Assembly (NCBI GenBank): GCA_016215315.1 | Contig: JACRKG010000054.1 | Span: 1-64,000 of the forward strand | Origin: Candidatus Woesearchaeota archaeon | Lineage (GTDB): Archaea > Nanobdellota > Nanobdellia > Woesearchaeales > ARS49 | Direction: 5' to 3' | Length of the DNA stretch: 64,000 nt | Program-made: the position numbers and the translations under genes | Shown here: in pieces, positions 3,642-57,410 of the stretch | How positions within the stretch are numbered: position 1 is the first letter of the stretch | How the letters are laid out: each line of letters starts with the position of its first letter | The notes under the pieces: generated by a model | Told to the model about the DNA's origin: nothing | The model's input: only the letters and a program-made list of their open reading frames with translations | The model's database searches: none

Positions 3642-3744
3642 TTCTATAAAGAAAGAGCAAATGGTATATAAATATTTCTAATCTACAAAAATTTCTAAAG
3701 AAATTTTTAACTATTGGGCTATTTTATGATACTGAATCAGTTTG

Positions 3745-3800
3745 AGTTCAGAGTTTGTAAACCAAAAACTACAAACCCCGAACCATGAACTACTACGGAG
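3745..3800. repeat. Heptamer-periodic hairpin repeat element, variant copy
   Basis: Sequence is TTTGAG TTCAGAG TTTGTAA ACC ... CTACAAA CCCCGAA CCATGAA CTAC. It lies between the divergent Lrp and MVP genes and abuts the GGAGG Shine-Dalgarno at 3797-3801. Confidence 0.6.
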
Positions 3801-3810
3801 GCTTGATAAA

Positions 3811-5493
3811 ATGAGTTTAGAACAAATAACAAAAGAAAACAATGTCTTAAGACCTTTCAAAAAAGCAGTATATGCTTTTAGACCTGAGAAAGCATTTTTA
3901 GATGAAGAACAATATGCGCACATAGTAAATAAAAAAACAGGACAAACAATTCTTGTAGAAGGGCCTGCTGAAAGAGTTCTAAGATATGATGAAAGAATTG
4001 TGGGAGATATAGAACAAAAAATAATTTTAACAGAAAACGAATACGCAATAATATCAAACCCAATAAACAACCAAGGAAAAGTACTTTACGGAGAAAGAGA
4101 AGTGAGAAAAGGACCGCAAAAATTCTCATTACGACCGGGAGAAAAAATAGAAAAACAACCAACAAAAGAACATGTACTAACAAAATATGACGCGCTACTG
4201 GTAAAAGCAAGAGAAGACTTTGACAATCGCAAAGCAGGAGACAAATTTTTAGTAAAAGGTCCAACTAAATATGTACCATCAAAACATGAAGACGTTCTAG
4301 AAAGAATAACTGCAATTTCATTATCTGACACTGATGGAATTTATGTGCAAAACAATGACACTGGAGAAGTAAGTTTAGTAAAAGGTCCAACAGACTATTT
4401 CTTACAACCGAATGAGTCATTTTACGAAAAAGAAATAACAAAAGAAGAACTACAAGCATTAGGATTAGAAGCACAAGTGGGCAGAGATGGAGTAAGAGTT
4501 TTAACCAGACAAGCAGCAAACAAATCGTTCCTAGAAGACAGAACAAAAGCTTTAGTACTAGAATTAGAAGACAATGAAATAGTATTCCTTTACGACGGAA
4601 CAGATACACGAATTGAAAAAGGACCAAAAACAACATTCCTAGGACCTTACGAAAGACCAAAAGTACTAAACTTATCAGGCGGAAGACCAATACAACCAAA
4701 TGCACTGAAAGTAGCACTACTAAAATTAGGACCTGACTTTATTTACGACCAAATAAGCGTAAGAACAAAAGACAACGCACAACTATTACTAAACATAACT
4801 TACAAATGGAGATTCAAAACAGAAAATAACAACCACAAAAAACACTTCTCACTAGAAGACTTTGTAGGATACACGGCAGAAACATTATCCTCAGAAATAA
4901 GAGGTGTTGCAGCAAAATATGACTTTGAAGAATTTCATGCAAAAGCATTTGAATACATCAAAGGGCAAGTCTTTGGTCAAGGAAATTCAAAACTATTCGA
5001 TGAAAACAATCTGGAAATTTTTGGCATAGACATAACAGCAATAAACCCTAAAGACCCAAAAATAGCAGAAAAACTACACGACGCAATAAAAAACAACATG
5101 GACATTTATTGCAAAAAAATAACTCTCAAAGCAACACTAGAAAGCGAAAGACAAGAACTGGAAGGAAAAAAACAAATAGAAAAAGAAAGAGGCGAACTAA
5201 TAAAATCAACAAACGAAAACGACAGACTATTATCAACAGAACAAGCAAAGATTCAAGCAGAAGCAGAAAAAATCAGAGCAGAAAGCCAAGCAGCATCAAC
5301 AAAAATAGTTAATGACGCAGAAATCGAATCAGAAAAGAAAAGACTAAACACCGTAATAGGAGAATTAGGAGGATCAAAAGAATACTTAGCATTACAAAGG
5401 GCAAAAGCACTAGAAAACGTAGAAAAATTAATCGTGCCAGAAAACTCCAGAATACTAATAGGAAACAATGGAGGATTTAATGACGACAACTAG
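3811..5493 (+). CDS. major vault protein (MVP) homolog
   Basis: About five MVP-type ~50-aa repeats, e.g. [62 protein letters not shown]. They are followed by the MVP shoulder signature [32 protein letters not shown] and [31 protein letters not shown]. These match animal MVP [32 protein letters not shown] and [27 protein letters not shown]. A C-terminal coiled-coil (cap-helix-like) follows. Start chosen at ATG 3811, preceded by GGAGG with 9-nt spacing. The ORF track extends to 3742. Confidence 0.8.
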   Translation: [560 protein letters not shown]

Positions 5494-6166
5494 AATAGCA
5501 TTAATCGGTGCAATGCCTCAAGAAATAGAAGCATACAAAAAATTAGCCAACAATAATATCTATGTAGGTCTTGTAGGAATAAGCAAACCGATAGCAGCAC
5601 TAAACACAACAAAAATAATTCTGGATTCTAATCCAGATTTTTTAATTTTTACAGGAGTGGCAGGAGCAATAAGTGAAGAGTATAAACTAGGCGACTTAGT
5701 TATTGGAAGTTATGCGATCGATGCCGATCTAGACGTAACAGTGTGGAAAGAATCACCACAAGCACCAAAATACAAACGAGGAGAACAACCATTCACGAGA
5801 CAAAGAGTGTACACATCAGATCAAAGACTTGTCAATTTAGTTTTAGATTACAACAAAAACATAAAACAAGCATTTGTAGCAACAGGTTCTGCATTTTTAG
5901 ACCAAAAAAAGAAAACAGAATTCTTAGAAAAAATTAACCCACAACTATCAGAAACACTTGAAGGAAAACTAAAAACTCCTGACGTTTATGATATGGAAAC
6001 TTCAGCAGTTCTACAAGTAGCAAACCATTTCAATAAACCCGCAATAGTAATTCGCGCAATAAGCGATACATTAGAAGGAAACGCTCCGGAAGACTTTAAC
6101 AAATTCATTAATAACTCTGTTGAGCAGTATGTCGGATTAGTAAAGTATTTATTAAGACAATTATGA
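5468..6166 (+). CDS. mtnN: 5'-methylthioadenosine/S-adenosylhomocysteine nucleosidase (PNP/UDP phosphorylase family)
   Basis: N-terminal RIALIGAMPQEIE motif, FTGVAGA, DMETSAVLQVA and the C-terminal RAISD motif are characteristic of the MtnN/Pfs fold. Overlaps the MVP stop (5493) by 26 nt. An alternative start is ATG 5480. Confidence 0.75.
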   Translation: MEDLMTTTRIALIGAMPQEIEAYKKLANNNIYVGLVGISKPIAALNTTKIILDSNPDFLIFTGVAGAISEEYKLGDLVIGSYAIDADLDVTVWKESPQAPKYKRGEQPFTRQRVYTSDQRLVNLVLDYNKNIKQAFVATGSAFLDQKKKTEFLEKINPQLSETLEGKLKTPDVYDMETSAVLQVANHFNKPAIVIRAISDTLEGNAPEDFNKFINNSVEQYVGLVKYLLRQL

Positions 6167-6602: not shown

Positions 6603-6867
6603 AATAAAAAGAGTCATAGATCCAAACAAAACACTAGAAGGAAGAATAAAGATAATTGGCGAAACAGAAGTTGCAAAAGCAATAGGCGCAGAACCAATGA
6701 CTCCCGAAGAATCTGCTGAATTCTTGAGAAAAACACAATACAATTACACAACTAAAGCAGATAATTATGCTAAGCCAACAACGGATAAAAATGAAAAACC
6801 AAATAACACAATCAAAGAATTCAATATGACTCCCTATCATCTTGGTGATCAACCAACGATTTTCTGA
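6592..6867 (+). CDS. hypothetical protein (91 aa)
   Basis: ORF overlapping the upstream stop by 11 nt (translational coupling). No motif. Confidence 0.35.
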   Translation: MTHEIKRVIDPNKTLEGRIKIIGETEVAKAIGAEPMTPEESAEFLRKTQYNYTTKADNYAKPTTDKNEKPNNTIKEFNMTPYHLGDQPTIF

Positions 6868-7356: not shown

Positions 7357-7441
7357 GCCGCCGTGGCACAACCTGGTTAATGCGTAACCCTGGAAAGGTT
7401 ATTTCCGCAAGGATTTCCCGGTTCAAATCCGGGCGGCGGCG
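7357..7441 (+). tRNA. tRNA-Ser (anticodon GGA), 85 nt with long variable arm, CCA not encoded
   Basis: Acceptor GCCGCCG/CGGCGGC. Anticodon stem TAACC/GGTTA with loop CTGGAAA (anticodon GGA). Long variable arm TCC-GCAA-GGA. T-arm CCCGG-TTCAAAT-CCGGG. Discriminator G. A TATA-like TTTAAAAC lies about 30 nt upstream. Confidence 0.75.
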
Positions 7442-7599
7442 ATTTTTAGTTTATTTTTTACCGCTAAAGACTAATAGGTCTTAATTACCACATAATATCA
7501 ATTCATGTTAATTCTGGTTTACATAAAGGAATTTTTTTAGAAATATTTATATATGAGTTAACATAAAAGATGAATTTATGTTAATTGGTGTTAACTAAA

Positions 7600-9116: not shown

Positions 9117-10046
9117 CTATCCTTCAACGTGTTTAACTTTTATTTCTCCTTTAACTGTGTTTGAGTAATCATAATCTATTGTTATGTCTATTGGTTTTTC
9201 GTAATCTCCTAAGTCTTCTAGTGTTTGAGTGCAACTAATTGCTTTCTTGTTCTCATAAAGTGTTACTGTTCCACCAGCGCTAGTTCCTGATAAATCATTT
9301 AGTCCAGTGCATCTTAATCCTGGAACACCACTATCGACTTTTACGTAAACTTTGTTTTGTTTTCTGTCTCCTTCACAATCACTATTCTTTTCGTATAAAC
9401 TTCCGTCTCCTACGTGTACTAAGTCGAAATAAATTCTTAGTTTATCTTTTCCTTGAACTGATTGCTTAACGTTTTGAACGTGAACTGTTCCTCCAGAATT
9501 CTGTACTGGTTTTACTTCTTCTAATGCACAAATGCCATTTTCTGCAGGAGTCAATAAGTTTTCTCTTACACACATTTTTGTTACTGCTTTTGTTTCGTAT
9601 AAATAACAAACCTCTGCAACCAATGGTAAACTTACAACATTGCCTTGTATTTGTGTTATATGATTTAGTTCTTTAAACTCAACAAATACTGGTTGACTAT
9701 CAATAATATCTCCACTTTCTAAAGTTCTCATTGCTTCTAATCCTTCTTCAGGATGTAATGATAATTGATCTTCACTTTTTCCAAACTGTTGTGGTTGAAC
9801 TCCTTTGAGTTTTACAGTTACTTTTTCTCTCTCAACTTTAGTCTCTCCATTATTCTTTAATTTTACAACAACATCAAAAGGATCATTACCACCGTCATTA
9901 ACTTCAGTTCTTAATTGATCAAATGTAGGAACTATTCCTTGAGTTCCTCCAATGAATGGCTTAATTTTTAGTTCAGTATTTTCTGAAGGAGTACAAGCTA
10001 CTATTAATAGTAACCCAATAATTAATAAAATACCTATTTTTTTCAT
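9117..10046 (-). CDS. secreted lipoprotein, paralog 1 of 3
   Basis: Signal peptide with a lipobox-like IVAC. Shares the block CY-x-Y-x-T-x-A ... C ... P ... C ... G ... V-x-NV with the next two genes. Confidence 0.6.
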   Translation of the reverse strand: MKKIGILLIIGLLLIVACTPSENTELKIKPFIGGTQGIVPTFDQLRTEVNDGGNDPFDVVVKLKNNGETKVEREKVTVKLKGVQPQQFGKSEDQLSLHPEEGLEAMRTLESGDIIDSQPVFVEFKELNHITQIQGNVVSLPLVAEVCYLYETKAVTKMCVRENLLTPAENGICALEEVKPVQNSGGTVHVQNVKQSVQGKDKLRIYFDLVHVGDGSLYEKNSDCEGDRKQNKVYVKVDSGVPGLRCTGLNDLSGTSAGGTVTLYENKKAISCTQTLEDLGDYEKPIDITIDYDYSNTVKGEIKVKHVEG

Positions 10047-10085
10047 GATCTAACATAAACTAATCAGTTACATATATAAAATTTT

Positions 10086-11009
10086 CTATGGTACGTGTAC
10101 TATTTCAACATCTCTGAATGCAGTTGTTCTGTATGCATAATCTAATTTTACTATTAATGGTCTTACTTGCTCGCTTCCTGCGTTCATTGTGTTTACTTCA
10201 CAATTAAAACTTGCACTTCCTCCTTGCAATCTTAAGAAGTTATTATTAATTAGTCCTTTGCATGTTGGTTTTATTGATTCAACACCAACAATAACATCAG
10301 TTACTTCAACAAAGTCTAATTCATTAAAATCAAGCTCTTTTTGTGCGTAAGGACTACATTGAGGCATTGCATCTCTTCTGAATACATCTCCACCACCAAC
10401 ATTACTTACACGAATAGTAAAAACAGTTTTACCTTTTCTTGCATCAACATTAACATTACCAACTGCAATAGGTCCACCTTGAGTTCCTAGACCAACACTT
10501 GCGGGAATACAAGCTTTCTTTTCAACACCCCTAGTAAATGGGTTGGGATCTATGCAAACAATTGTTTCAGCAATAGTTTGGTAGCCATAACAAGCTGTTG
10601 CTAACGTCTTAAAGGGATATTTTGATACAGATAATGGATTTATACTTAAAACAAATTCTACAAAGTCTCTGCTACTTGTTGTTGGCGTGTATGCTGTTTT
10701 TCCCTCGAGATTAGGAATTTGTTTTCCATTAAAAGCACCATCCAAAGGTTGAACAATATTATGATCGAAACCTGACAAGTATATTTTATCCAATTGTTTT
10801 CCTACAGAATAAGCGCCTAAATTTTGTACTTCAATTAATACGCTTGCTCTGCTTTCATCGTCATAAATCTTTAAAGGAGGCTGGTTTGTGACAAAATTAA
10901 TGTAAACTCCCTGACTTCCAGTACGAAAACTAGTAGGCTCTCCAGGCCCGGTTGTAGTACACGAAATAAATATAGCCAAAAAAAGCAGCAATAATATGAT
11001 TTTTCTCAT
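10086..11009 (-). CDS. secreted lipoprotein, paralog 2 of 3
   Basis: Signal peptide MRKIILLLLFLAIFISC. Conserved block ACYGYQTIAETIVCIDPNP. Confidence 0.6.
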   Translation of the reverse strand: MRKIILLLLFLAIFISCTTTGPGEPTSFRTGSQGVYINFVTNQPPLKIYDDESRASVLIEVQNLGAYSVGKQLDKIYLSGFDHNIVQPLDGAFNGKQIPNLEGKTAYTPTTSSRDFVEFVLSINPLSVSKYPFKTLATACYGYQTIAETIVCIDPNPFTRGVEKKACIPASVGLGTQGGPIAVGNVNVDARKGKTVFTIRVSNVGGGDVFRRDAMPQCSPYAQKELDFNELDFVEVTDVIVGVESIKPTCKGLINNNFLRLQGGSASFNCEVNTMNAGSEQVRPLIVKLDYAYRTTAFRDVEIVHVP

Positions 11010-11038
11010 TTTTTTATCCTTATTAGTCCTTCTCCTTT

Positions 11039-11938
11039 TTAATTTTTGCTTTCAATTCGTATTTTTTTAGTTATTGTTTGAGCATAACCATAACTTAATT
11101 TAACTGTTAATGGTGAATTATAACTTCCTTCAACACTAGGAATTATTCTTTGCAACTCACAAAACAACTCATCACTCCCATCTTTTAAATTTAATTTGTT
11201 TTTATTACAAACTAACTTTTCATCACTCAATGAAACTTCTACATCAATCACATTCTGCTGTTCTGTGGGAATACTTTTTCCAGTACAAAAATAATTTACG
11301 TAATCAGAACTTATTATTTCTCCCTTATCTAAATTTTTAATGGTGATGATATATTGAGGTCTTACCCCGTTTTTTTCAATAATCATCCTAGGAACGATAT
11401 TTGTTACACCTATGGGTGCTGCTTGGCCTGCACTGAATGATTGAGGATTTACCGTGCAAACCTTTTTTTCTTTACTAGAAGGATTTGAATCGATGCAAGT
11501 AATAATGTTTGCTTTTGTTTCATAAGGATAACACAAACTAAACGATAAAACACTATTAATTCCTTCCTGACTCCCAACACTTTTAGCTTTTCCTTCAACA
11601 ATTATTTGTGTTTGATCTCCGTAAGGTCTTTCTAAACTCTTACCTTTAAGATTTATCGTGTCTGTTTTCTTATCTACTTTAATGTATTGTTCTTCTATTC
11701 CTAAAGAATAAACTCCATTAACAACATTACTTGCTCCAGTATTTTCTACAAAAATTCTTATTGGAACAGCAGATTCCTCATAAACATAAGCTGGTGGTGC
11801 ATTATTATCAAAATAAAAATTCAATCCTTTGCTTCCCGTAAATTCGCTACCGCTAAAAATATCTGAAGTGCAAGAGAGAACAAATAAAAACAAAATCGTC
11901 AAAAAAACCGATTTTTTCGAAGAAAAAATCCTACTCAT
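11039..11938 (-). CDS. secreted lipoprotein, paralog 3 of 3
   Basis: Signal peptide with lipobox VLSC. Conserved block CYPYETKANIITCIDSNPS. Its start overlaps the upstream stop in ATGA. Confidence 0.6.
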   Translation of the reverse strand: MSRIFSSKKSVFLTILFLFVLSCTSDIFSGSEFTGSKGLNFYFDNNAPPAYVYEESAVPIRIFVENTGASNVVNGVYSLGIEEQYIKVDKKTDTINLKGKSLERPYGDQTQIIVEGKAKSVGSQEGINSVLSFSLCYPYETKANIITCIDSNPSSKEKKVCTVNPQSFSAGQAAPIGVTNIVPRMIIEKNGVRPQYIITIKNLDKGEIISSDYVNYFCTGKSIPTEQQNVIDVEVSLSDEKLVCNKNKLNLKDGSDELFCELQRIIPSVEGSYNSPLTVKLSYGYAQTITKKIRIESKN

Positions 11939-13473
11939 TTTTTCACCACAACTTGTGTTTTTTCGCTTAGTTCATAGTCATAAATGGTTGTTGTTTTGAA
12001 AAAATTTGTCGTATAAGGTTGATCTTTAAGTATTTCTTCTGCATCGCCTTCAACTCTTAAACTAAAAACAACTGGTTTTCCCTCTAAATTTTCTGGCAGA
12101 ACACCGAGTCCTTCACCAGTTATTTCATAAACTTTTTCCAAACTATCATCACAAAGATTTCTATCTTCTTGAGGTAAATCTAAGCAAGTAACTTTTTTAA
12201 TTATCCTTCCTTCACCCTGTAATCCTGAAATTCCAGTTACAGTAAATCCTTTTGGCATTACAAAGAACATTTCTTTTATTGTTTTTAATTGTCCAGACCA
12301 AATATTTGTTAATCCCACATCGAGTTTTAAACTAACTCTACTTTCATCAGCATCAAGACCAACTGGAGGACTTCCAATATCCATTGAAACTCTTAATGGC
12401 CCCGGTGTATAAACCGCAATAAAATCGCTGCTGAAAAAATTATAAACTTTTAAAGGATCTTTTCCTTGTCTTCTTAATTCAAAAAGAGTGTTTTGATTTA
12501 AGAAAAATCCTCTTAAATAAGAGAGAGTTTTGAAATTCTCAATGTTAACATTTAGTTTAATTTTATGACTCCCCAGTTCCAAATTCGGAAAATTACAATC
12601 AATTCTTTCATCAAATAAACGAACAACCTTCCAAGATTCTTTCAATGGATATAATTCTCCATCTATTTTATCGTCTGCTTTACAATCAATTTTTAGCGTA
12701 ACCTCATTATCAACAACATCTGCTTTAATTCTTCCCTCAATACTTACAGGCATTCCTTCAGTGAAAATACTGGTGGGTATTGGTTTTAGTTCTTCAACAA
12801 AAACTCCCACTTTTCGTTTATTCATTTCGTCAACTTTTGCTTTGTGAGGATCAATTGCGTACTCAATTCTTCCCCAAAAAACATCCCACATGAACGTAAA
12901 TTGGTCACCAACAAAATTCCAAGCATCACCTGCATTATCAACCATTACATCCCACACATACTCCATTGCTAAAGGAGGATAAACTCCCGGATAAATTGCA
13001 TTAAATCCTATCGCTTGAATGTCATTAAAAAAGAATAACGAAGTGGCAACTATCCAAAATAAGAACAAAACAAACCCAATCCACCTAGTATATCTCGATC
13101 TTTCTCCACCAAATACTATTCCTAAATAAATTGCCCATGCAGGACTGAAAGCGATAATTAATGCGACAAAAGCAACAGTTAGCTCATTAAAAGGCAAATA
13201 TTGAAAAAGACTATTTGCCATTGGAGCAATAAAAGAAATAAGACTGATTATTCCAAATTCTCTAATGTAATGACTCGAACTATGCCTTTCACTTTCATCA
13301 AGCAATAAAACTCTTGCTAAAAATATTAGTAATAAATAAACAAAAAGAAAAGGAAAATGTAAGGGAATTCCTCCCCTAATTCTTATTCTTATATCAAAAA
13401 GAAATATTACCAACCAAATTAGTATAAATAACCAAGCACTTCCTCTACCTGTATGTCTAGTACCATTCGCCAT
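11935..13473 (-). CDS. integral membrane protein with large extracytoplasmic domain
   Basis: 512 aa. The first ~200 residues contain about five hydrophobic helices. The remainder is hydrophilic and beta-rich. Confidence 0.55.
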   Translation of the reverse strand: MANGTRHTGRGSAWLFILIWLVIFLFDIRIRIRGGIPLHFPFLFVYLLLIFLARVLLLDESERHSSSHYIREFGIISLISFIAPMANSLFQYLPFNELTVAFVALIIAFSPAWAIYLGIVFGGERSRYTRWIGFVLFLFWIVATSLFFFNDIQAIGFNAIYPGVYPPLAMEYVWDVMVDNAGDAWNFVGDQFTFMWDVFWGRIEYAIDPHKAKVDEMNKRKVGVFVEELKPIPTSIFTEGMPVSIEGRIKADVVDNEVTLKIDCKADDKIDGELYPLKESWKVVRLFDERIDCNFPNLELGSHKIKLNVNIENFKTLSYLRGFFLNQNTLFELRRQGKDPLKVYNFFSSDFIAVYTPGPLRVSMDIGSPPVGLDADESRVSLKLDVGLTNIWSGQLKTIKEMFFVMPKGFTVTGISGLQGEGRIIKKVTCLDLPQEDRNLCDDSLEKVYEITGEGLGVLPENLEGKPVVFSLRVEGDAEEILKDQPYTTNFFKTTTIYDYELSEKTQVVVKK

Positions 13474-13477
13474 TTCA

Positions 13478-14671
13478 TCATTCTACTTTAATCCTTAACT
13501 CAACTACATCAACAGGTTCTACCGGAGTTACTTCAATGTAATTCTTTCCAGGCAATAATAAATCTTGAACATCGCTCAAAACCCACTCAAATTTGGTTTC
13601 TTTTTGATTTATGCTCTTAACTTGTCCGTTAATGTTAAGTTCTAATTCTTTTTGTTTTCCGTCATCAACAAAATCAAGCTGCAAAATAATCTTTTTGAAT
13701 TTATCAAGCAAAACATCCGAGTATAATTGATTATTAATATTGAAGTAAGCTAAGAAAGGCTTTGTTTCTTTCAGCTTCAACAACAATTGTGATTTGCTAA
13801 TATCATAAACTCCTTTAGTTCCTTCAAAGCTTAAAACATTTCTTCCTGTTTTCAAATAATCTTGATAAACGTTTAATTCTAATATATCATCGCATACTGG
13901 AACTGCAGAGTATAATTGTTTGCTATTCAAGGAAACAGTAAGATACCCTGTATTTTTTACATCACAACTAATAAAAAATCTTAATTTTCCTTCCTTCAAT
14001 TCTTGTAATTCTGATTCCTCTAAAGAAAAAGGATTATGACTTATTAGTGCTTCTTTTTCTTCAACAGTAGCAATAATTTTTAAATCACTAATTTGGTATT
14101 CTTGACTCTCAAAAAATCCTCCTTCAACATTAAAAGTCAACTGATTTTTTTCAGCATCCAACATTCCAGGATCAATACTTAATAAATTTGATTGCTGCGC
14201 TCTACCTCTAAAAATTTCGGCACCATTCAATCCGACAACTAAAATTCCATTCTTAGTTGGCGCTTGAAAGCTAATATGAACTTTTGTTAATCCTTCTTTA
14301 GGAACAGAAAAGGGAATTATTTTTCTTAATTCAGAAAACCAACCATGGTAGATTTGAAACGTGTTGACTTCTCGCAATAAAATATCTGGTTTAGTTTCAG
14401 TTAAAACAAAATTAGGAAAATCAATAGTTTTCTCATCATTATTTACAACACTCAAATGGCCAACATTTTCACGAAGCAAAAATTCTCCCACTAAAGGTTT
14501 AACACCAGAACTGCCAGGAGTTCCTCCTGAAGCATCCTCTCCTAACAACTCAATTCTTACATTTGGAGGTAAAAAAACTATGTAGAATATCAATAAAACT
14601 GTGATAAGCATTATTAGTGTTGCAGCACCAGCAGCATCACGTCTTTTACCTGAACTTTTCTCTTCACCCAT
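13478..14671 (-). CDS. membrane-anchored extracellular protein (first gene of the lipoprotein operon)
   Basis: 397 aa with a single N-terminal TM (ATLIMLITVLLIFYIVFLPP) followed by a hydrophilic domain. Lies 4 nt upstream of the next gene. Confidence 0.5.
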   Translation of the reverse strand: MGEEKSSGKRRDAAGAATLIMLITVLLIFYIVFLPPNVRIELLGEDASGGTPGSSGVKPLVGEFLLRENVGHLSVVNNDEKTIDFPNFVLTETKPDILLREVNTFQIYHGWFSELRKIIPFSVPKEGLTKVHISFQAPTKNGILVVGLNGAEIFRGRAQQSNLLSIDPGMLDAEKNQLTFNVEGGFFESQEYQISDLKIIATVEEKEALISHNPFSLEESELQELKEGKLRFFISCDVKNTGYLTVSLNSKQLYSAVPVCDDILELNVYQDYLKTGRNVLSFEGTKGVYDISKSQLLLKLKETKPFLAYFNINNQLYSDVLLDKFKKIILQLDFVDDGKQKELELNINGQVKSINQKETKFEWVLSDVQDLLLPGKNYIEVTPVEPVDVVELRIKVE

Positions 14672-14749: not shown

Positions 14750-15787
14750 ATGAAGTTAATCAAATCAGATAGAAAGAAAGGAATAGTAACTATAAAGCCA
14801 GAAAATACTGATGATTTATGGTCTTTAAGTGAATTAATAGAACCAAACGATTTAGTTAAAGGGAAAACTCAAAGAAAAATCAAAGTAAGCGACAAAGAAA
14901 CAATGAAAAAGATGCTTTTTCTATCGATTAATGTAGAACAAGTAGAATTCACAGAAAACGCATTAAGGATTAACGGTAAAACAACTGAAGACAATGAAGA
15001 CGTGGCAAAAGGAAGCTATCACTCATTTGAAGTAGAACCAGGAACAGTATTTACTGTAGAAAAAGAATGGCTAGACTACCAATGGGATAAATTAATAGAA
15101 TCATCACAAGAAAAACCATCAAAAATACTAATAATTGTATTCGACAGAGAAAGCGCAATATTTGCAAAACTAAAAAGACAAGGATACGAAATAGTTTTAT
15201 CATTACAAGGCGAAGTCGTTAAGAAAAGAGTTTCAGAAAAACCCAAACAAAACTTTTACCAACAAATAATTGCAAAAATAAAAGAATACGACGAGAAAAA
15301 CAATTACGAACACATAATTCTAGGAAGTCCATCATTCTGGAGAGAAGAATTAATGGATCAATTAAAAGATGACAAACTCAAACAAAAAATTGCACACGTC
15401 CAATGCTCAGGAGCAGACGAGCCGTCAATAAAAGAAGTACTAAAAAAAGGAGAACTAGAAAAAGTACTAAAACAAGACCGAATAAGCAAAGAGCTAAAAT
15501 TAGTGGAAGAATTATTCTTACAAATATCAAAAGAAGACTTAGCAGTTTACGGACTTAAAGACGTAAAAAAAGCAGTAGAACTAGGGGCAGTAAATACTTT
15601 ACTAATAACTGACGAATTAATAAAACAAAAAAGACAAAACCAAACATTCAACGAACTACAAGAATTAATGCGAGCAACAGAAAAAATGAAAGGAAATATC
15701 ACAATAATAAGCACAACACACGAAGGAGGAAAAAAACTACAATCCTTATCCGGAATAGCGGCAATCTTACGATATAAAGTGGGATAG
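14750..15787 (+). CDS. pelA: protein pelota homolog (aPelota/Dom34, mRNA surveillance)
   Basis: The N-terminal MKLIKSD...GIVTIKPENTDDLWSLSELIEPNDLV segment is typical of archaeal Pelota. Length 345 aa. An eRF1-like C-terminal region is present. Confidence 0.8.
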   Translation: MKLIKSDRKKGIVTIKPENTDDLWSLSELIEPNDLVKGKTQRKIKVSDKETMKKMLFLSINVEQVEFTENALRINGKTTEDNEDVAKGSYHSFEVEPGTVFTVEKEWLDYQWDKLIESSQEKPSKILIIVFDRESAIFAKLKRQGYEIVLSLQGEVVKKRVSEKPKQNFYQQIIAKIKEYDEKNNYEHIILGSPSFWREELMDQLKDDKLKQKIAHVQCSGADEPSIKEVLKKGELEKVLKQDRISKELKLVEELFLQISKEDLAVYGLKDVKKAVELGAVNTLLITDELIKQKRQNQTFNELQELMRATEKMKGNITIISTTHEGGKKLQSLSGIAAILRYKVG

Positions 15788-15850
15788 TTTGTAGTTTACA
15801 GTTTGTGGTTTACAGGACACGTACTATGAACTACAAACCATGAACTATAA
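15787..15850. repeat. Heptamer-periodic hairpin repeat element
   Basis: TTTGTAG TTTACAG TTTGTGG TTTACAGG ... ATGAACTACAAACCATGAACTATAAACC, immediately after the pelota stop. Confidence 0.7.
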
Positions 15851-15932
15851 ACCCAAATCAGAATTGCGGTTGGAATATTACGGGCGTCAAATGGGTGCTA
15901 AGTCTTGTGATGACTACTAAGTTTTTTGTTGT

Positions 15933-21117: not shown

Positions 21118-21180
21118 ATTTCTTCAAAACAATACTTTTTTAAACAAAGAAAACCAAACTGTAAACTAAAAGAGGAAAGC

Positions 21181-21855
21181 TTGAAAATAAACCAACCAAT
21201 AATTGTAATATTATCAATCGCAATTCTATTAATAATGCTAACCTTGTTCAACACAATAACAGGAAAACAAGTTCAAGAAGGAGAAGAATACAGAGGAAGA
21301 TGGTATCCGCCAGTTGAAAGTCCATTAGAAGGAATACCGGAAGGAACAAGATATGACTTACCTGAAGAATGCCCAATAAACGTCAACGAACTACCAGAAG
21401 GTGTAGGTGTTGGACCATCACTAGGACCAATAGATGTGTACATGAAAAAATCGCTAGAAGTACCAACAGAACAAGTAGTAGATCCTGATACTGATGGAGA
21501 TGGTCTAACAGGCAAAGAAGAATTAATTATAGGTACAGACCCGAATAATTACGATACAGACGGAGATTCCTGGTCTGATGGTGTGGAATATTTTTACGGA
21601 GGAGATCCTTTAGATAAAAAAATAGTTCCTCAAGATTCTGACAATGATGATTTACCAGATAAGCAAGAAAAATACTTAGGCACAGATCCAAACAATTATG
21701 ATACGGACAATGATGGATATTCTGATGCAAAAGAACTCAGAGAAGGAACAGACCCTTTAGATCCAGAAAGTCCAAAGTTCAAAGAGATTAGAGGACAACC
21801 TCTTCCGAGAGAATACCAAAAAGAATTTGATAACGGAGAAATACAAGCAGGATGA
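21181..21855 (+). CDS. membrane-anchored Ca2+-binding repeat protein (thrombospondin type-3-like D-x-D-x-D-G repeats)
   Basis: N-terminal TM anchor. Repeated [52 protein letters not shown] and DPLDPE motifs typical of TSP3/OmpA-like calcium-binding loops. Confidence 0.6.
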
Positions 21856-21857
21856 AA

Positions 21858-21935
21858 TAGTTTACAGTTTGAAGTTTGCAGGGTTATCTTCAGATATCAG
21901 TTACTGTAAACTGTGAACCGCAAACTGTAAACCAA
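21858..21935. repeat. Heptamer-periodic hairpin repeat element
   Basis: TTTACAG TTTGAAG TTTGCAG GG - 20-nt loop - CTGTAAA CTGTGAA CCGCAAA CTGTAAA CC. Confidence 0.7.
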
Positions 21936-22024
21936 TTTTGAGTCATTATCGGTAGTTGAATAACAAAAAATCCTTCTAAGTACATAAATATTTATAAACA
22001 AAAACACCTTAAATCAAATAAAAA

Positions 22025-26113: not shown

Positions 26114-26346
26114 AAACATTTTTTTCGAAGAAAAAAATAATATTTTTAATTTTCGTAATTTTATTACTGATCTTAGTCGGATGCAAAAAAGAAGACTCAG
26201 AACTACAAAAATTAAAAGAATTACAAAAACAAAAAGAAACACCAACAACAAAACAAATAGCAGAAAAACCAAACCCAATAAAAGTAAACGAAAAACTAGT
26301 AGTAGTTGACGGTGAAGGAAGACAGTTGGAAGTAAAAGTGGAATAA
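26110..26346 (+). CDS. small lipoprotein (78 aa)
   Basis: Start overlaps the upstream stop in ATGA. Signal peptide with lipobox LVGC. Confidence 0.5.
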   Translation: MKTFFSKKKIIFLIFVILLLILVGCKKEDSELQKLKELQKQKETPTTKQIAEKPNPIKVNEKLVVVDGEGRQLEVKVE

Positions 26347-26788
26347 TTCTTAGGTATTACGATACCAGGATGTTTATAAACACTTAGGTATTCTGATACC
26401 GAAACATTTAAAGACTAATATCGTTTAAATCATAACAATTTTGTCATTTTGTTGATACTAAAGTAGTATACTTTACTATCAACTATTCAAATTTTTCTAT
26501 TCAAAGAAAACGAAATTACTCCTTTAGAGATAAAATATCAAGAAAAAATATCCTGCAATTCCAATACACCAATTATTGGCGTTGCTGAATTAGTTTGCAC
26601 GTAAAAGACTTATCAGTATCATCTCTAGCTTGGCTGGACAAATTGTTCGGCTGCCAAAAAAGAACAAAAATAAGCAAGCAAATAAGTCTGGCAGCCGCTA
26701 GGGGAAAATTTTCCTTGAAAACGATAAAATAGGTGAAAATAATTCTTAAAAACGCTTAACCTTCTTTTCGACGGTGCAGAACAGCAAT

Positions 26789-26797
26789 ATTTATAAA
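26789..26797 (+). promoter_or_regulatory. candidate TATA box for the giant-gene operon
   Basis: ATTTATAAA lies about 130 nt upstream of the 26919/26931 start. The hairpin repeat element at 26848-26910 would then lie in the 5'UTR. Confidence 0.3.
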
Positions 26798-26847
26798 CAA
26801 AAACTCCTAAAAACAGTTATAAAAGGGTGTTTAAGGGATTTAACGGG

Positions 26848-26910
26848 TTTACAGTTTGTAGTTTGCAGTTTATAGTCCCGTAAACCGTAAACTTTGAACT
26901 GCAAACTAAA
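26848..26910. repeat. Heptamer-periodic hairpin repeat element (best copy)
   Basis: TTTACAG TTTGTAG TTTGCAG TTTATAG - tcccg - TAAACCG TAAACTT TGAACTG CAAACTA. Ends 9 nt before the giant gene start. Confidence 0.7.
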
Positions 26911-26918
26911 AAGAGAGG

Positions 26919-29900
26919 GTGTATGATGTAGTGAACAAAAGAGTGATAGCATTGTTCGTAATAGTATTATTTCTAAACATCACATTAGTTTCAGCACTAC
27001 CAGTTTGGCTTGAATGGATGCTAAAACTACCGAGCATAACTGGAAAACAAGTATTTCAGCAACAAACTTGTCCTTCTGGTTATTCTCCAGTTAAAGATAA
27101 CAACCAATTGATTTATGCGGCAAACTGCCAAACAACTGACTCAGGAATAATGGGCAATTTATACTTAGGAAATAATCCTCAGTTGTATACTCCCGAAGGA
27201 TTTGTACTGGCAGGACTAGTAGATTTTGCATGCACCCCTGAAATAACAGAAAGAACTGAAACAATTTGCGGTCCATTTGTAGGAAATTCAGAAATGGGAG
27301 AACCATTGTCTTTAGTATGTCAAAAATCAATTTCTTGTGAAACAACACAACAACCACCAACGACTCCACCAGTAGAAACCCCACCAACAACAGATCAACC
27401 GATACAACCCTGTTCAGGAGTAGAATGTCCTGCAGGAAAAATACTTAACACAGGAACTTGCTCTTGTGAATGTGCTTTGACAAATGCAATATGTAAACAA
27501 AACTTAAACAATAATGATGCATATGCAGATCTAACAGCTTGCTCTTGCAAAATAAATGAAACACCTCCCCAAACATCAGAAAATTTATGCCCTTCGGGAG
27601 GAACTGTTGAAGCACTTGCAGATACTTGCGAAAAATATGGAAGTTGCCCAACACCACAAATAGCTTGCGGAGTAAAATTTACGGGTTATGGATCATCAAC
27701 AGCATTTGAATGGGGACCTCAATGTTTAGATAAAACAAAAATAACTTATTATTGCGGAGCAACAAACAACGAAGGAAAAACAGCAATCTGCCAATTAGAA
27801 AACGCATGTGGAAACAACGAAATTTGCATTCAACAACCACAAGAAAATCCAACAAATGTTTATTGTAGTGCTCCAGAAAGTGCTTGTCCTCTAGAACCAG
27901 GAGCAGAAGAACCTTGTCAAGAAAAAAACAAAGCAATAAGTATTCAATTTCCGCCAGGTTCTGAAGTCTTAGACAAACCTTACTGTGATAACTTATGCCA
28001 ATTATCTTATTGTTATCAAACGAGCGATAAAAAAATTACAATAGCAAAATCTCCTGGAAAAGAGGAACAGTCAAGAGAAAATGGTAAAGCATATGATGAT
28101 TCTGGCAAAGAAACAGGAACAGATACAGAAACTTGTTATACTTGTTCATTCTATTCATCGGGAGACTTCCAACCAATTGCTTGCCCAATATCTGAAGTAG
28201 CTTGCAATAATAACAATGTAGCGCAATTAGGAGAAGAATGTGACGGAACAGACTTAAAACAAAAAAATTGCAAAGACTTTACTCAAAGCACAATACTGCA
28301 ACCTTTCGACGGAGGAAAACTAAAATGTGACACCGCTTGCGATTACAACACAAATGAATGCTATGTTTGCGGCGATGGATCAATTGACGGACCAGAACAA
28401 TGTGACATCAATGAAGCGGGACAAGAATTTGGTTGCGATCCAGGATGGTTCTGCGGAGTACAATCAGGGTTAAGATGTCAATGCATTCCTCCAATTATTG
28501 AATCAACAAAAGAATCCTGTCAAAAAGCAGGAGTATCCACGACATTAATCAAAAAAGATCCACCACTAGCTTACACATATACTGATGGAATCAAACCATC
28601 ACTTGAAGAAGCATTCAATCAAGCACTACTAGAAACAACAGGCACACTAAAATCAGAAGGAATAGAACTAACAAATCCATCAACAGACTTTGAAAATATT
28701 TGTTTTAAATGCAACATAGAAGGAGAAGCACAAACGGGTGACGATGTAAGTAGAAAAGTATTCGCTGATTATTGTGCACCAGTAGAAAAAGTAAACCTAA
28801 AAACAGCATGCATCCAAGAAGCAAACGGAGTAACATTCCAACAAAAACAAAACGAAGATGTAAAAGAAGAAACAAAATATCCAAACAAAGCAAGACCAGA
28901 AATAACAAAGAAAGAAGGAAGAAAATTAAGCTCGCCAAAAAAATTCAGCAATCAAGAATTCTCTCAATCACTCAATATTCCAACTTCAGAAGTTTCTAGT
29001 GTAGACTTAAACAATGTCTGTTGGGCTTGCGGAATACCAGACACAAGTTACAGTTTACTGGGAGGAAAATTTTCAACGTCAGGTCAACAAGGAGTAACTT
29101 CACAAGCATCATTAGTTCCTGTGAGAATTGATTGTCCAATAATAGAAAAAGCTGAAACGAATTGCTGTATTAGAAAAGATGATGAAGGAAAAATTGTAGA
29201 ACGTGCTTTAGTTGAGGGTAAATGTCCAGAAAAATTACCAATAAAAGATCCAACTGGAGAAGCTTGCAAAATTATTGAAAAAGGAAAACAAGTTTGTTGT
29301 CTAGTTCCTCCTGTTCCTGAAAAGAATATTCCAGAAAATTATGTTTGGAAAGAAAACTCGTGTGGAGAACTAAAAGAATTCCCAGAACAATATTGTAATC
29401 CAATTAAAAGATTAGCTTGTGAGATATGTCCTTCTTGTGATAATGCAATAGGAGGTTTACCTCAAGGAACTCCATCACAAAGCTTGCTTTTAGCAGATCC
29501 TAAAGGAATCATTGGAGAAGGTGATGAAGAACAAAAACAACCCAAATGCGGTGACGGAGTAAGAAATGGAAAAGAAGATTTTGATCCAGGAATGGCAGTT
29601 GTTAATGCAAGAAAAGAATCAGAAAACGGAGCAAGAACTCAAACAATTTGTCCAGTACAAGAAGGATCAACAGGTTCTCTAGTAACAAACCAATGGGATG
29701 ATCACTGCAAAAAAATAGGTTTAGGAACACAATTCAACATTAACACGTGCAAATGCGAAGGCACAACAGAGCTATCAACATCACAATCACAACAACAAAT
29801 TAAAACAAATTGTGAAGTTTACAAACCATCAACAGAAAAAACAGAATTACCACAACTAGAATTACTAAAAAAAGAATATATTAGTTTTGCTCCAGAAAAA

Positions 29901-32900
29901 CAAATAGAACAAATCCCGAGCATACAAAGCACGATATTAATACAAAAAGACTATGTGCTAAGCAGTGATGGCCGCTTCAAAAAAGAAAAAACTCTCGAAC
30001 AAATAGAAGAAACATCCAAAAATATAAAACCAATAACAGGAAAGTTCATAATAACTGGATTCCAAACAGCAGAAATAACAACACCTAAATTAATCAAAAC
30101 AATAGACAACGTTGACGGAAGCAAAACTTTAGAATTCAGCGATGGATCAAAAAAAGTTCTGACAGAAACTTATTCCAAAAACGACCTAGGACAATTAGTT
30201 AGAGATCACTTTACAAAAACAGTAATAACAAAAGAAGGCAAAACAATACAAAGAAAACAATTAATTAACGGCGAAATAGAAGAAACATATCCGGACAAAA
30301 CAGTAATAAGGTACAAATTAACTCCAGATAAAAAATCACAAGTAACATTCCAACAATTTACTAATGATAAAGGAAAAACAGTAAAGTTAAGCTATGAATA
30401 CCTTCCTGACAGCACAAGAAAAAGAATAAGCGACACTGATAGCAGTTCTGCAATCCAAGAACCATTCATTAACGAAAAAGGAGAACAGGAATGGAGAAAC
30501 AAAAAAGAAACCGATGCATTTGGCAGAACATTCTCTTACGACTACAAAAAAACCAAAATCAATGGAGAAGAAAAAGAAGTAACCTTAGTAAAAAATGAAG
30601 CAGGACTAATAGTAGAAGCATTTTATGATGAACAAGTTCAAAGAATTAATGTTGACTGCGAAGAAAAAGAAAAATTAAATTGCAAAAAACCAGAAGAAAG
30701 CAATTACGAAAAAACAGATTTGGGCGGCGGATTATTACAATTCAAGAAAAAAATTCAAGAAGGAGAAAAACAACACGAATACACATGCAAACTAACCAGC
30801 ACAAAAATATTCTCACAACCAGAATGCTTAATGACTTATGAAAAAACACAATTAGATGACGGAACAATAAAAGAAAGCATATACGAATACCAAGGCGACA
30901 GCACTTACAAAATAATAGACAAAAAAGATCCAAGAGACGTCTCAGTCATAAAATACGTTGATGGAAAGCCAAAAACATTAATGGCAACATCAATAGATGA
31001 AGAAGGAAACGCAGTAGGTTACTATGTGAAAGAGCAACAAGATGGTTCTCAAGAACTAGATTTCTTTGACGGAAGAACAAGAAAATTAAGCAAAACAAGA
31101 GAAACAACTTCATTCACAAATGAATTTGGCGATGAAACATTCTTATTAGGAAAAAATAAAGAAGGAAAAGAACAATTCAAACAAGTAAGTAGTGATGGAA
31201 AAACAACAATCTATTATGAAGAAGACAGTCAAGATGCTGAAGGAAAAACAAAATATTTCACATCAAGAACAGAAATAAAAACAGAAAAAGGAACAGAAGT
31301 AATAAGCAGAGAAAAAACAAAAGACGGCCTAATTAAAGAAACACGAGCGGATTCGACTGGCGCTGTAACAATTTTATTCTTCAAAGAAGGAGAATCAGAT
31401 CCTAAAAAATATCAAACAATAGACGAATGCGGAATAGACTCAGGAATAATAGAAACAACAAAAGATCAAGAAAAACCAGAAACAATGACGCAACCTTGTG
31501 AAACTGAAGAAGTGCAATCTCAAGTTGATTTCACAAAACTAAGTGATACAGAAAAAGACAATTATTGCAAAGATAGGAAATCAAAAGATCAACAAAAAAA
31601 TGAAGAATCAAAAAAGGCAAAAGAGCTAAAAGATATATGTGTTTACGAGCTAAAAAATAACAATTACCGAATAAATGAAATAGATAAAAAAGATGGAAGC
31701 AAAGAAAAATATGAATACTTCAATTATGAAAGTAATGAATTAACAAAAATAGAATACACTGGCGGGCCAAGAGATGGAACTTATTTAATTCTGGCAAACG
31801 CAGAAGATGTCAAAAACGAAAAAGGAGAAACAGTCAATGACAAATATGGATCACCAAAAAAATTACAAGTAGTGCTAGAGTCAAAATCACTGATTGATGG
31901 ACAACCAAAAATATATTGCACAGCAAACTTAGCGGACGGAAGCAAACTACAAGTAGAAAAAGGTAAAGGAATCATAAGCCAATACTCTTACTTAAACCCA
32001 GAAACAGAAAAAACACTCAAAAATCTAGGACTAATAGAAGAAACAATAATAGAAGAAACACTAATAGAAAAAACACTAATAGAAGAAACACCCAAAAAAG
32101 GTCCAGCATCATTCACAACAAAAACTCAAGTAATAACACAAGAAAAAACAACTACTACAACAAGAGAACCACTAACTAACGGAAATATTTTAGTGAGAGC
32201 AGTTGATGACGATTTAAGAAACTCGAATTTTGCTCATCTACTTTACGAAAAATACTTCAACAAAGAATGTGTAGGTACTGAAGTAATAAAAGAAGAGCAA
32301 AAATCAGAAGAAACAGAGCAACCAAAAATAAGTCTGAGCGCAGGAAGAAATCAAGCATCACAAAGCTCACAAAAAATAGCGCAAACACTATTAGGCGGAG
32401 GAAAACCAACAGGCCCAGTTAATCTAGGAGATGTATTAGGAACACAAAATCCAGTTTCTTGCGTAGCAAACACACTCAAAAGTTTAAGCGAAGATAAAAC
32501 AGAAACTCCAGAACCAAAATTCTTATACCAAATAATCAAGCCACAAAAAGAAGAAGACTTAGTATTAAGACAAGCATTTGAAGTAAATGGAGAAGAACAA
32601 ATCACTGATTATGTTTACCCAGAACAAAAAAAGAAAACTAGCTACACGAGAGTAAATGTTAAAGAAAAAACGTGGACTCAATTTAATGAAAAAGATGAAG
32701 CTCAAGAATTCTTATCAAAAACAGAACAAGGATACCAATTAACATCTTACGGAGATTACGGCGGACTAACTAAATTATGCGAGAAATTGGACGAAAAACA
32801 ATACCAAAATCCTCTAGCAGAAAAAGTAGACATGACACCAATACAATTATGTAAAGAACAACCAGAACTTTGCTTAGCAGGAAGTTGTCCAGAAACATAC

Positions 32901-57042: not shown

Positions 57043-57255
57043 ATTGGCGAATACTAATAATATAAGAAATATTTTCTATTTGTTCTGACACAAAATCAAG
57101 ATGTATTTAAATAAGATCGATATTACTAAAGTCGTTCTTAGTTATTTTGAATATCTTTCGGTTTTTAATCCGCACATTTATTGATTAAATTCGGCTTATG
57201 ATACGATAGTTGCTACTTCTAGTTTGCAGTTTGAAGTGAATATACCAATTCTGTT

Positions 57256-57289
57256 CATTACTAATGCACACTATTGTTCATTAGTAATG
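57256..57289. promoter_or_regulatory. twin 11-bp palindromes CATTA-N-TAATG (candidate operator) upstream of the fourth giant gene
   Basis: CATTACTAATG at 57256-57266 and CATTAGTAATG at 57279-57289, 23 bp centre to centre, 120-155 nt upstream of the 57411 start. Confidence 0.4.
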
Positions 57290-57410
57290 AAAACTATTAT
57301 TTTTACTATGTGGAAACAATTCTTCTTTTCCGACGAAAAAAACAGGAAGATTTATAAAGAAAAACATTACAAAACACTTGAAAAATAGAATAAAAAACGA
57401 GGGGTTATTA

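Follow-up and report, generated by a model that had tools for sequence, protein, structure and literature searches.

In this study, we show that a 64,000-nucleotide stretch of the genome of a Candidatus Woesearchaeota archaeon (assembly GCA_016215315.1, contig JACRKG010000054.1, positions 1 to 64,000; the whole stretch is hereafter called the window) carries a family of imperfectly palindromic elements built from 7-nt units, and that this family is non-random and restricted to intergenic DNA. Five complete elements (E1 to E5), one half copy and one remnant follow a common plan, with a left arm of three or four units of the form GTT-Y-R-Y-R, a centre of 4 to 24 nt, and a right arm of four or five units of the form Y-R-Y-R-AAC. 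It seems, at about an even chance in our judgment, that they represent a lineage-specific, dispersed and probably mobile quasi-palindromic repeat, similar to repetitive extragenic palindromes (REP) or miniature inverted-repeat transposable elements (MITEs); its arms would evolve in the manner of heptanucleotide simple repeats, and any effect on messenger RNA would be incidental. The first-pass annotation of this DNA had entertained three readings, namely translational control from the 5' untranslated region (5'UTR), iterated binding sites, and a miniature mobile element. The last is now the best supported, through presence and absence among relatives, restriction to one lineage and a shared apex, patterns that point to mobility rather than record it.

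The non-randomness of the family is evident from a strict scan, which required at least three units at period 7 carrying GTT[TC] or [GA]AAC. Eight arms were found in the window (three left and five right), all within E1 to E5, whereas 300 dinucleotide shuffles produced 0.57 arms on average and never more than 3. Likewise, GTTTNNNGTTTNNNGTTT with at most one mismatch matched the window 18 times, and 15 of these matches fell inside E1 to E5, those in left arms on the + strand and those in right arms on the - strand. Positions 1 to 57042 are 94.4% coding, and every arm lies in the remaining 5.6%; about one tenth of this scarce non-coding DNA consists of the elements, and in the full elements the left and right arms are always paired no more than 24 nt apart. 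All six loci claimed in the first-pass annotation were recovered to within a few bases, and its description of them as an intergenic family of heptamer-periodic imperfect hairpins is correct. It had named a similar density inside coding regions as the sign of mere compositional bias; the number of arms inside genes is zero.

The heptamer period was also correctly recognized, but the unit, given as TTT-NNN-G, is better written GTT-Y-R-Y-R. In a table of 40 units, with right arms entered as reverse complements, the successive positions read G 36, T 39, T 38, T 31 or C 7, R 39, Y 33 and R 38; the E2 left arm stands out of register in this table, and 37 units are correctly registered. Among these 37 there are about 17 different heptamers in which only GTT is fixed. 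The variation consists almost wholly of transitions, with positions 4 to 7 each toggling between two bases. Tandem Repeats Finder reported period 7 (or 14) at E1, E3, E4 and E5, with matches of 73-82% for the period-7 arrays (100% for one array of 2.1 copies) and 84-93% at period 14. The proposed three to four units per arm hold for the left arms, whereas the right arms have four to five. That the elements are not a CRISPR array, as had been stated, is borne out by units that are 7 nt long, abutting and variable, with no constant 23-50 nt repeat alternating with unique spacers of similar length. A separate asymmetry is that GTTC-type units (GAAC on the + strand) occur in E1 to E5 only in right arms, in 7 of 21 units there and in none of about 15 correctly registered left-arm units; this excess could be a mutational signature of the A-rich + strand.

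None of the five full copies is assigned a strand. E1 (1023-1076) has the left-arm units ATTTGCA, GTTTATG and GTTTACA at 1023-1043, the apex GGAC at 1044-1047, and the right-arm units TGTAAAC, TGCGAAC, CATAAAC and CGCAAAC at 1048-1075. In E2 (3740-3790) the left arm (GTTTGA, GTTCAGA and GTTTGTA, 3740-3759) merges directly into the right-arm units TGTAAAC, CAAAAAC, TACAAAC, CCCGAAC and CATGAAC, which begin at 3756 and end at 3790. E3 (15787-15854) is composed of four left units (15787-15814), the centre GGACACGTAC (15815-15824) and four right units (15825-15852) followed by CC. E4 (21860-21934) has three left units (21860-21880), a 24-nt centre (21881-21904) and four right units (21905-21932), again followed by CC. 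In E5 (26847-26908), four left units (26847-26874) and four right units (26879-26906) enclose the apex GTCC (26875-26878), which reads GGAC on the - strand.

The two partial copies both lie on the + strand. The remnant at 21153-21166 keeps the two right-arm units ACCAAAC and TGTAAAC, followed by TAAAAGAGG, which holds a Shine-Dalgarno sequence, and by a TTG start codon at 21181; it shares with E5 the same 3' flank, AAAC TAAAAAGAGAGG. The half copy at 57222-57235 consists of the left-arm units GTTTGCA and GTTTGAA without a right arm, two units that are weak on their own, and lies upstream of a long + strand open reading frame (ORF) starting near 57308. Between the half copy and this ORF, immediately before ATG 57308, a perfect inverted repeat with 13-bp arms, TTCATTACTAATG / CATTAGTAATGAA, encloses a loop of some 10 nt (57255-57297). 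This repeat has no relation to the heptamer elements and might serve as an operator or form a hairpin in the leader.

Presence, absence and probable kinship of the elements

Contigs from two related assemblies are syntenic with the window around the pelota gene, and the pelota of contigs L002 and L003 is 93% identical. E3, which follows pelota, is identical in the Logan contig L001 and absent from the orthologous spacer in L002, L003 and L004. The post-pelota spacer of L002 and L003 aligns with the window from 'AATATTACGG' on, and 20 unrelated bases take the place of the 67-nt E3. L002 also lacks an element before the orthologue of the gene starting at 1120, where a tRNA gene is inverted, so that this is not a clean empty site for E1. 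Conversely, L002 has a four-unit right arm of its own 3 nt after the stop codon of the Lrp gene, where the window has none. Overall, L002 carries one arm in 12 kb and L004, with 74% identity, none in 21 kb, compared with eight in the 64 kb of the window. The conservation of element positions in related genomes, which the first-pass annotation had proposed as a check, is contradicted by the empty E3 spacer in the 93% relative. The elements turn over faster than the spacer sequence around them decays, and their positions are not conserved regulatory sites.

Among more distant relatives, a metagenome scan with a pelota profile yielded 80 loci (826 kb) from DPANN archaea at 44-70% identity. No period-7 array was present in these 826 kb, and the family-specific scan returned one chance-like three-unit match. 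We therefore reject the possibility that the elements are a general feature of DPANN archaea; their absence from these relatives indicates that the family is confined to the immediate lineage of the window.

The copies also appear to be related to one another. Three of them, E1 and E3 on the + strand and E5 on the - strand, share the apex TTTACRGGAC, which has no other occurrence in the window; the expected count is 0.18. Moreover, E1 and inverted E5 are identical at 40 of 48 ungapped positions, and the differences that were checked are transitions. The shared apex and this match speak for a common descent of the copies, with insertions in both orientations. The classes of position that the elements occupy (5'UTR, after a stop codon, before a promoter) are varied, which suggests tolerated insertion rather than a dedicated signal.

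If the elements are mobile, each would spread or be lost as one unit. Spread might proceed through a hairpin-forming intermediate handled by a trans-acting factor, as for REP/REPIN or MITE elements, and loss by deletion of the palindrome. Once settled, the arms would behave like a 7-nt simple-sequence repeat, with units gained or lost by slippage and changed by transitions. Copies would persist only where genes are left undisrupted, that is after stop codons, in leaders ahead of the ribosome-binding site (RBS), and upstream of promoters. Transcribed copies would add an imperfect stem-loop of 20-30 bp to the mRNA, with a possible incidental effect on 3'-end stability or on initiation, as with bacterial REP elements. 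We infer the mobility, its mechanism, the slippage and the effect on mRNA alike from the patterns described here.

Several observations weigh against a mobile repeat. No transposase or HUH/Y1 gene was found among 25 window proteins compared with Pfam (10 of them also with NCBIfam), and the full copies visible number five, within 64 kb of the host genome. Comparison of the filled E3 site with the empty site of L002 and L003, a single comparison, revealed neither a target-site duplication nor a conserved target motif. Because the copies are nearly symmetric, pairwise orientation calls are non-transitive, which makes the evidence of kinship moderate. An ancestral palindrome lost in the relatives would give the same pattern of presence and absence as a gain. 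Lastly, two copies stop 5-6 nt short of a Shine-Dalgarno sequence and two others start 0-4 nt past stop codons, a placement that could be due to function and not to tolerance.

The comparison with these contigs brought out two further features of the region. One is a gene at 3811-5493 for a major-vault-protein-like (MVP-like) protein in a DPANN archaeon (Pfam MVP_shoulder, 2.7e-28; also Vault_3, Vault, Vault_4 and Vault_2). Together with the PNP_UDP_1 phosphorylase gene that follows it (5468-6166), it is missing from the 93% relative L002, and E2 lies at the left edge of the resulting 2.4-kb indel. The other is a run of five consecutive - strand ORFs at 9117-14671 (309, 307, 299, 512 and 397 amino acids), which have no Pfam match and whose order is conserved in L002 to L005; this block looks like a lineage-specific operon.

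Heptamer arrays in other genomes

Similar arrays are widespread outside the immediate lineage. The pattern (GTTTRYR)3GTTT was found at at least 120 loci in a genome collection, and GTTTRYR likewise at at least 120 loci in a viral collection. The matches listed, to which the observations on other genomes below refer, are mostly from Bacteroidota (Prevotella, Chitinophagaceae, Flavobacteriaceae), and also from the Candidate Phyla Radiation (CPR; Saccharibacteria, Daviesbacteria, Wildermuthbacteria), Desulfobacterales and others. Two archaea are among them, one of the Woesearchaeota (L017) and one of the Thermoplasmata (L112). These loci hold 294 arrays of period 7, compared with no more than 24 for any other period from 4 to 12, and about half of the period-7 arrays among the matches listed are made of unrelated units such as GGTTATA, TTAACCC, CTTACAG and GATTCGT. 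Long arrays of the target family are present at 30 loci of the viral collection, compared with 16 and 22 for composition-matched permuted heptamers (a 1.4-1.9-fold excess). Since permuted heptamers are nearly as frequent and unrelated arrays co-occur in the carrier genomes, a universal sequence-specific motif can be rejected, and the broad matches reflect the general abundance of heptanucleotide repeats.

The two-arm plan recurs in many bacterial and archaeal loci among the matches listed, with centres of 0-139 nt. Where opposite arms lie within 150 nt of each other, the GTT arm precedes the AAC arm in 27 of 27 listed cases. Inverted pairs made from other heptamers tend in the same direction, with the G/T-rich arm clearly first in six of eight and the A/C-rich arm clearly first in none. 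Within families the centres can be conserved, as in Lepagella muris (L033 and L109) and Prevotella (L013 to L015), and a saccharibacterial contig (L009) has three near-identical copies within 3 kb (4620-4671, 6684-6735 and 7418-7445), and each copy precedes by about 10 nt the Shine-Dalgarno sequence of a gene on the - strand. Conserved centres and near-identical copies within a genome are the behaviour of dispersed repeat families. In the Prevotellaceae loci (L013, 3828-3928; L014, 5169-5277; L015, 6435-6536) and those of Lepagella muris (L033, 3691-3826; L109, 4979-5080), the centre enclosed by the arms is 45-53 nt long and shows partial conservation from copy to copy and from genome to genome, as in GATGAATAC...GTAATCATC. 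Such loci are composite dispersed elements without an Rfam match.

The abundance of heptamer arrays raises an alternative in which the elements are purely local simple-sequence repeats, both arms having grown in place by 7-nt polymerase slippage, with neither movement nor function. We regard this as unlikely. Degenerate units, a variable unit number and an arm order that is not mirrored are all as slippage would leave them, and the many unrelated arrays that accompany the GTTYRYR family in the same genomes, together with control heptamers that form arrays nearly as often, fit a general process. It has moreover been proposed that long simple sequence repeats (LSSR), among which heptanucleotides are the most abundant and sporadic in occurrence, arise by 7-nt slippage (Mrazek, 2007, as summarised in PMC4679880). 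On the other hand, the two-arm, 67-nt E3 is present or absent as a clean block, and its empty site holds no seed sequence from which arms could have grown. An asymmetric apex common to three copies and the conserved cores of bacterial families are likewise difficult to obtain by local growth, and slippage alone does not predict a strict 27:0 arm polarity.

Position relative to genes and RNA folding

The genes of the window include pelota, TrmB, Lrp/AsnC and an archaeal-type PheRS, and the pelota homologues that bear names belong to Woesearchaeota or Nanoarchaeota. The window's protein of 1362 amino acids is 100% identical to an NCBI protein of a Candidatus Woesearchaeota archaeon. Promoter and 5'UTR assignments in what follows are inferences from sequence. 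ATG 1120 and ATG 22025 are each preceded, at 32-33 nt, by a TATA-like TTATAAAC box, and by standard archaeal promoter geometry the genes starting there are predicted to be leaderless; another such box is at 26791-26798. E1 is located in the divergent spacer between a tRNA-Arg gene (816-891, - strand) and the leaderless gene at 1120, and ends 11 nt upstream of the TATA-like TTATAAAC at 1088-1095. E2, also in a divergent spacer, lies downstream of an Lrp/MVP divergent promoter block that is conserved across three genomes; 6 nt separate the end of the element from GGAGG (3797-3801), the Shine-Dalgarno sequence of the vault-protein-like gene (ATG 3811). E3 overlaps the pelota stop codon TAG (15785-15787) by a single base, the G, and tracts of T6 and T7 follow some 70 nt further down. 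E4 begins 4 nt after the stop of the gene at 21181-21855, and 57 nt separate its end from the TATA-like box at 21992-21999, which precedes the leaderless gene for a protein of 1362 amino acids (ATG 22025). E5, being downstream of the box at 26791-26798, probably lies inside the 5'UTR of a gene for 5214 amino acids; it ends 5 nt before GAGAGGG (26913-26919), and the likely start codon is GTG 26931 or 26919. Only E2 and E5 among the five full copies thus appear to be 5'UTR elements, while E1 and E4 would be outside the downstream transcripts.

Two side observations concern the neighbourhoods of these copies. Between tRNA-Arg and E1 is a GC-rich island of about 75 nt (945-1015), in a region otherwise of 33% GC, which is absent from L002 and whose predicted fold is no better than that of shuffles (z about -1). 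Downstream of E5, giant + strand genes occupy 26919-55899; they encode 5214, 3184 and 1267 amino acids with overlapping stop and start codons, and the further ORF at about 57308 runs beyond 64000. Their coding strand is very A-rich, with an AT skew of up to +0.48. Of the three, the 1267-residue protein was compared with Pfam and has no match at the curated cut-off, and the upstream protein of 1362 residues found no homologue but itself among 5.8 billion clusters. Inside the giant genes are a perfect 42-nt tandem duplication (51839-51931, 2.2 copies, 100% match) and a 15-nt array (32030-32091, 4.1 copies), both of in-frame length.

All five elements form a long imperfect hairpin on both strands in predicted folds, as the first-pass annotation had anticipated. 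The + strand RNAs of E1 to E5 fold at -22.2, -11.8, -28.5, -24.5 and -22.9 kcal/mol (z of -5.1, -3.4, -5.9, -3.9 and -4.9) and the - strand RNAs at -29.5, -22.3, -24.0, -23.5 and -20.7 kcal/mol (z from -3.8 to -8.5, with -8.5 for E1 and -6.2 for E2). The DNA folds are weaker because many of the pairs are G-T. The heptamer periodicity permits the arms to pair in several registers, and a hand count of 16 variable positions in E3 gave nine Watson-Crick, four G-U and three A-C pairs, which is about what random purine-pyrimidine pairing provides. Across 27 two-arm elements from the window and other genomes the order of units in one arm does not mirror that in the other (0.74 observed, 0.75 with permuted units), which indicates that hairpin potential is a property of the family and not of arm-by-arm compensation. 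Sense RNA was more stable than antisense in 6 of 16 assignable cases. With both strands folding and no compensatory matching of the arms, selection on sense-strand RNA structure is not supported.

These data bear on the possibility that the elements are functional cis-regulatory sequences, in which iterated GUUU/AAAC heptamers or the hairpin, through a protein that binds them or through folding of the mRNA, would control translation or stability of the flanking genes; for iterated binding sites as such the data speak neither for nor against. We think this rather improbable, though several observations speak for it. The distance from the end of E2, E5 or the remnant at 21153 to the Shine-Dalgarno sequence that follows is 5-6 nt, and E3 and E4 start 0-4 nt after a stop codon. 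In other genomes, where gene calls are simple, crude ORF calls, the orientation of 170 arms was counted among the matches listed. Within 12 nt after a stop codon the GTTT sense prevails 42:6, and within 30 nt before a start codon the AAAC sense prevails 40:16; in L013, L029, L085 and L087 an element exactly fills the spacer from stop to start. AAAC-sense arms carry 0.66 start codons per 100 nt, compared with 8.2 in the opposite sense, and 8.15 stop codons compared with 4.18, which would suit a leader sequence, and avoidance of start codons could explain the AAAC-sense orientation before genes. The higher number of stop codons in AAAC-sense arms excludes the idea that polarity arises from a G/T-rich arm supplying stops to upstream genes. 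Folding is slightly more favourable on the + strand in the three window copies that have + strand genes on either side. There are also precedents among bacterial heptamers: TAACTGA direct repeats in marine Beggiatoaceae, Cyanobacteria and Bacteroidetes (MacGregor, 2015; PMC4679880) and, in Nostoc, repeats of TTTTGAA/TTCAAAA close to start codons (bioRxiv 10.1101/2022.06.06.494920), for both of which a regulatory role has been proposed.

Against a regulatory function, however, the elements are not conserved in the orthologous spacers of the 93% relative and are absent from the 826 kb of other relatives, and the genes they flank (pelota, the vault-like protein, surface giants) are unrelated. E1 and E4, upstream of TATA-like boxes, would lie outside the downstream transcripts, and the Shine-Dalgarno sequences lie outside the predicted stems and are therefore not sequestered. 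The lack of a sense-strand advantage and of compensatory arm matching points the same way. Nor was an Rfam family matched: only two tRNAs were detected in the window, none of the ten loci with related elements gave a match, and nothing below an E-value of 0.4 was returned for 26340-26935. For the proposal of 5'UTR translational control this means that E2, E5 and the remnant fit, while E1 and E4, the post-stop copies E3 and E4, the accessible Shine-Dalgarno sequences and the unconserved positions do not. The two copies said to abut the RBS or start codon are indeed near the RBS, but they end at 3790 and 26908, before the Shine-Dalgarno and not at the start codons. The statement that all copies lie 5' of + strand genes is correct and trivial, because nearly all genes here are on the + strand.

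A very improbable alternative is a role as transcription terminators or as 3'-end signals, in which the hairpin together with the left-arm U3 runs would stop archaeal RNA polymerase after pelota and after the gene at 21181-21855. E3 and E4 do begin at or just after stop codons, their left arms contain three or four T3 runs, and the 42:6 preference of listed GTTT-sense arms after stops would agree with it. Yet the U-rich arm is 5' of the stem, which is the reverse of an intrinsic terminator, the canonical T6 and T7 tracts are found some 70 nt downstream of E3, and E1, E2 and E5 are promoter-proximal or in leaders, where termination would be harmful. An intrinsic terminator in the strict sense can be rejected, as the stems are A/U-rich and the 3' side is A-rich, instead of a G+C-rich stem followed by a 3' U-tract. 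The probability that the family is a compositional accident of an AT-rich genome is negligible, for in spite of a GC content of 33% and a mild excess under loose matching (102 matches with at most two mismatches, 71 expected), the strict arms far exceed the shuffles, all fall in the non-coding 5.6%, are always paired within 24 nt and fold with z as low as -8.5.

Relation to known repeat classes and significance

By form, the elements of the window are prokaryotic heptanucleotide repeats. Mazel et al. reportedly described short tandemly repeated repetitive (STRR) heptanucleotide repeats in cyanobacteria in 1990. As with these and with LSSR, the window units stand head to tail, three or more in a row, in intergenic DNA, with a sporadic, lineage-specific distribution. 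In contrast, the window units are degenerate and not copies of one near-perfect heptamer, the arrays are short (three to five units) and form inverted pairs of fixed polarity that fold into a hairpin, and the host belongs to DPANN. The TAACTGA and Nostoc repeats resemble the window arrays in being short sets of heptamers (two to six units), mostly intergenic, often a few nucleotides upstream of a start codon, in a preferred orientation to the gene, and patchy in occurrence, including in Bacteroidetes. They differ in unit sequence and in being direct repeats, with a single inverted case reported, rather than two-arm hairpins; moreover, only two or three of the seven window copies adjoin an RBS (E2, E5 and the remnant at 21153, and not E1, E3 or E4).

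By behaviour, the elements resemble REP/REPIN sequences and MITEs. REP and REPIN elements are short imperfect extragenic palindromes mobilized by RAYT transposases (PMC3116915). Like them, the window elements are confined to extragenic DNA, appear to be scattered in both orientations (five full copies in 64 kb), are specific to one lineage, differ in presence between close relatives, and could form stem-loops in 3'UTRs or between cistrons. Unlike them, they have arms with an internal 7-nt period and a variable number and order of units, and no RAYT (Y1 HUH) or IS200/IS605 gene was seen in the window. MITEs, including archaeal ones, form dispersed families with terminal inverted repeats around a variable or family-specific centre. 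The window copies match this in having a GTT arm on the left and its complement on the right in every case, as in the 27 of 27 listed pairs that include other genomes, and in belonging to dispersed families of 50-160 nt with conserved cores in bacterial relatives. An apex is common to three of five window copies, and no autonomous element was seen in the window. They depart from it in that their 'terminal repeats' are simple-repeat arrays of variable length around centres of 4-24 nt in the window, and the one E3 comparison shows no target-site duplication. With no near-perfect single unit, no RAYT in view and no target-site duplication, the family is not a full member of any of the classes compared.

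Integron attC sites, which consist of R'' RYYYAAC ... R' GTTRRRY and are recognized as a folded single strand, are also imperfect hairpins with conserved 7-bp boxes that hold AAC and GTT triplets. In attC, however, AAC comes first and GTT last, whereas GTT comes first in 27 of 27 listed pairs of the present family; attC has one pair of boxes rather than arrays, and its fourth position is a purine where ours is a pyrimidine. Given the reversed polarity, the pyrimidine at position 4 and the lack of an integrase or cassette array, we reject this identification. Our literature searches returned no open-access description of heptamer repeats in DPANN archaea and no open-access paper on arrays of these units in prokaryotes; a string search gave only the ACAAACT satellite of Drosophila virilis. 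Two units, ACAAACT and ATAAACT, are identical to heptamers of the classical satellites of that fly, which as far as we can tell is a coincidence.

A much broader proposal, which we consider a long shot, is that two-arm heptamer hairpins constitute one cross-domain class with a built-in polarity, made or moved by a conserved and undescribed mechanism, their placement aiding persistence. Such a class would have the GTT-type arm 5' and the AAC-type arm 3' on both strands, and would span DPANN, Thermoplasmata, CPR, Bacteroidota and others. The mechanism might be a transposase acting on single-strand hairpins with the heptamer arrays as its 'ends', or else a repair pathway in which G/T-rich heptamers are added to both 3' ends of a break before the ends are joined. 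Copies would persist in the GTTT sense after stop codons and, being free of start codons, in the AAAC sense before start codons.

The elements bear on the origin ('why seven?') and the function of heptanucleotide repeats, the most frequent class of long simple repeat among prokaryotes. Here the phenomenon is met in a tiny DPANN archaeal genome with scarce non-coding DNA, and the survey adds three regularities: arrays that often form inverted pairs, of invariant polarity in the 27 listed, arms oriented to gene ends, and a turnover faster than neutral spacer decay. If a trans-acting factor exists, a small genome such as that of the host would be a good place to find it. If there is none, the elements would be a clear case of structured junk that is tolerated at the borders of genes, and annotators should then not read them as riboswitches, terminators or CRISPR remnants.

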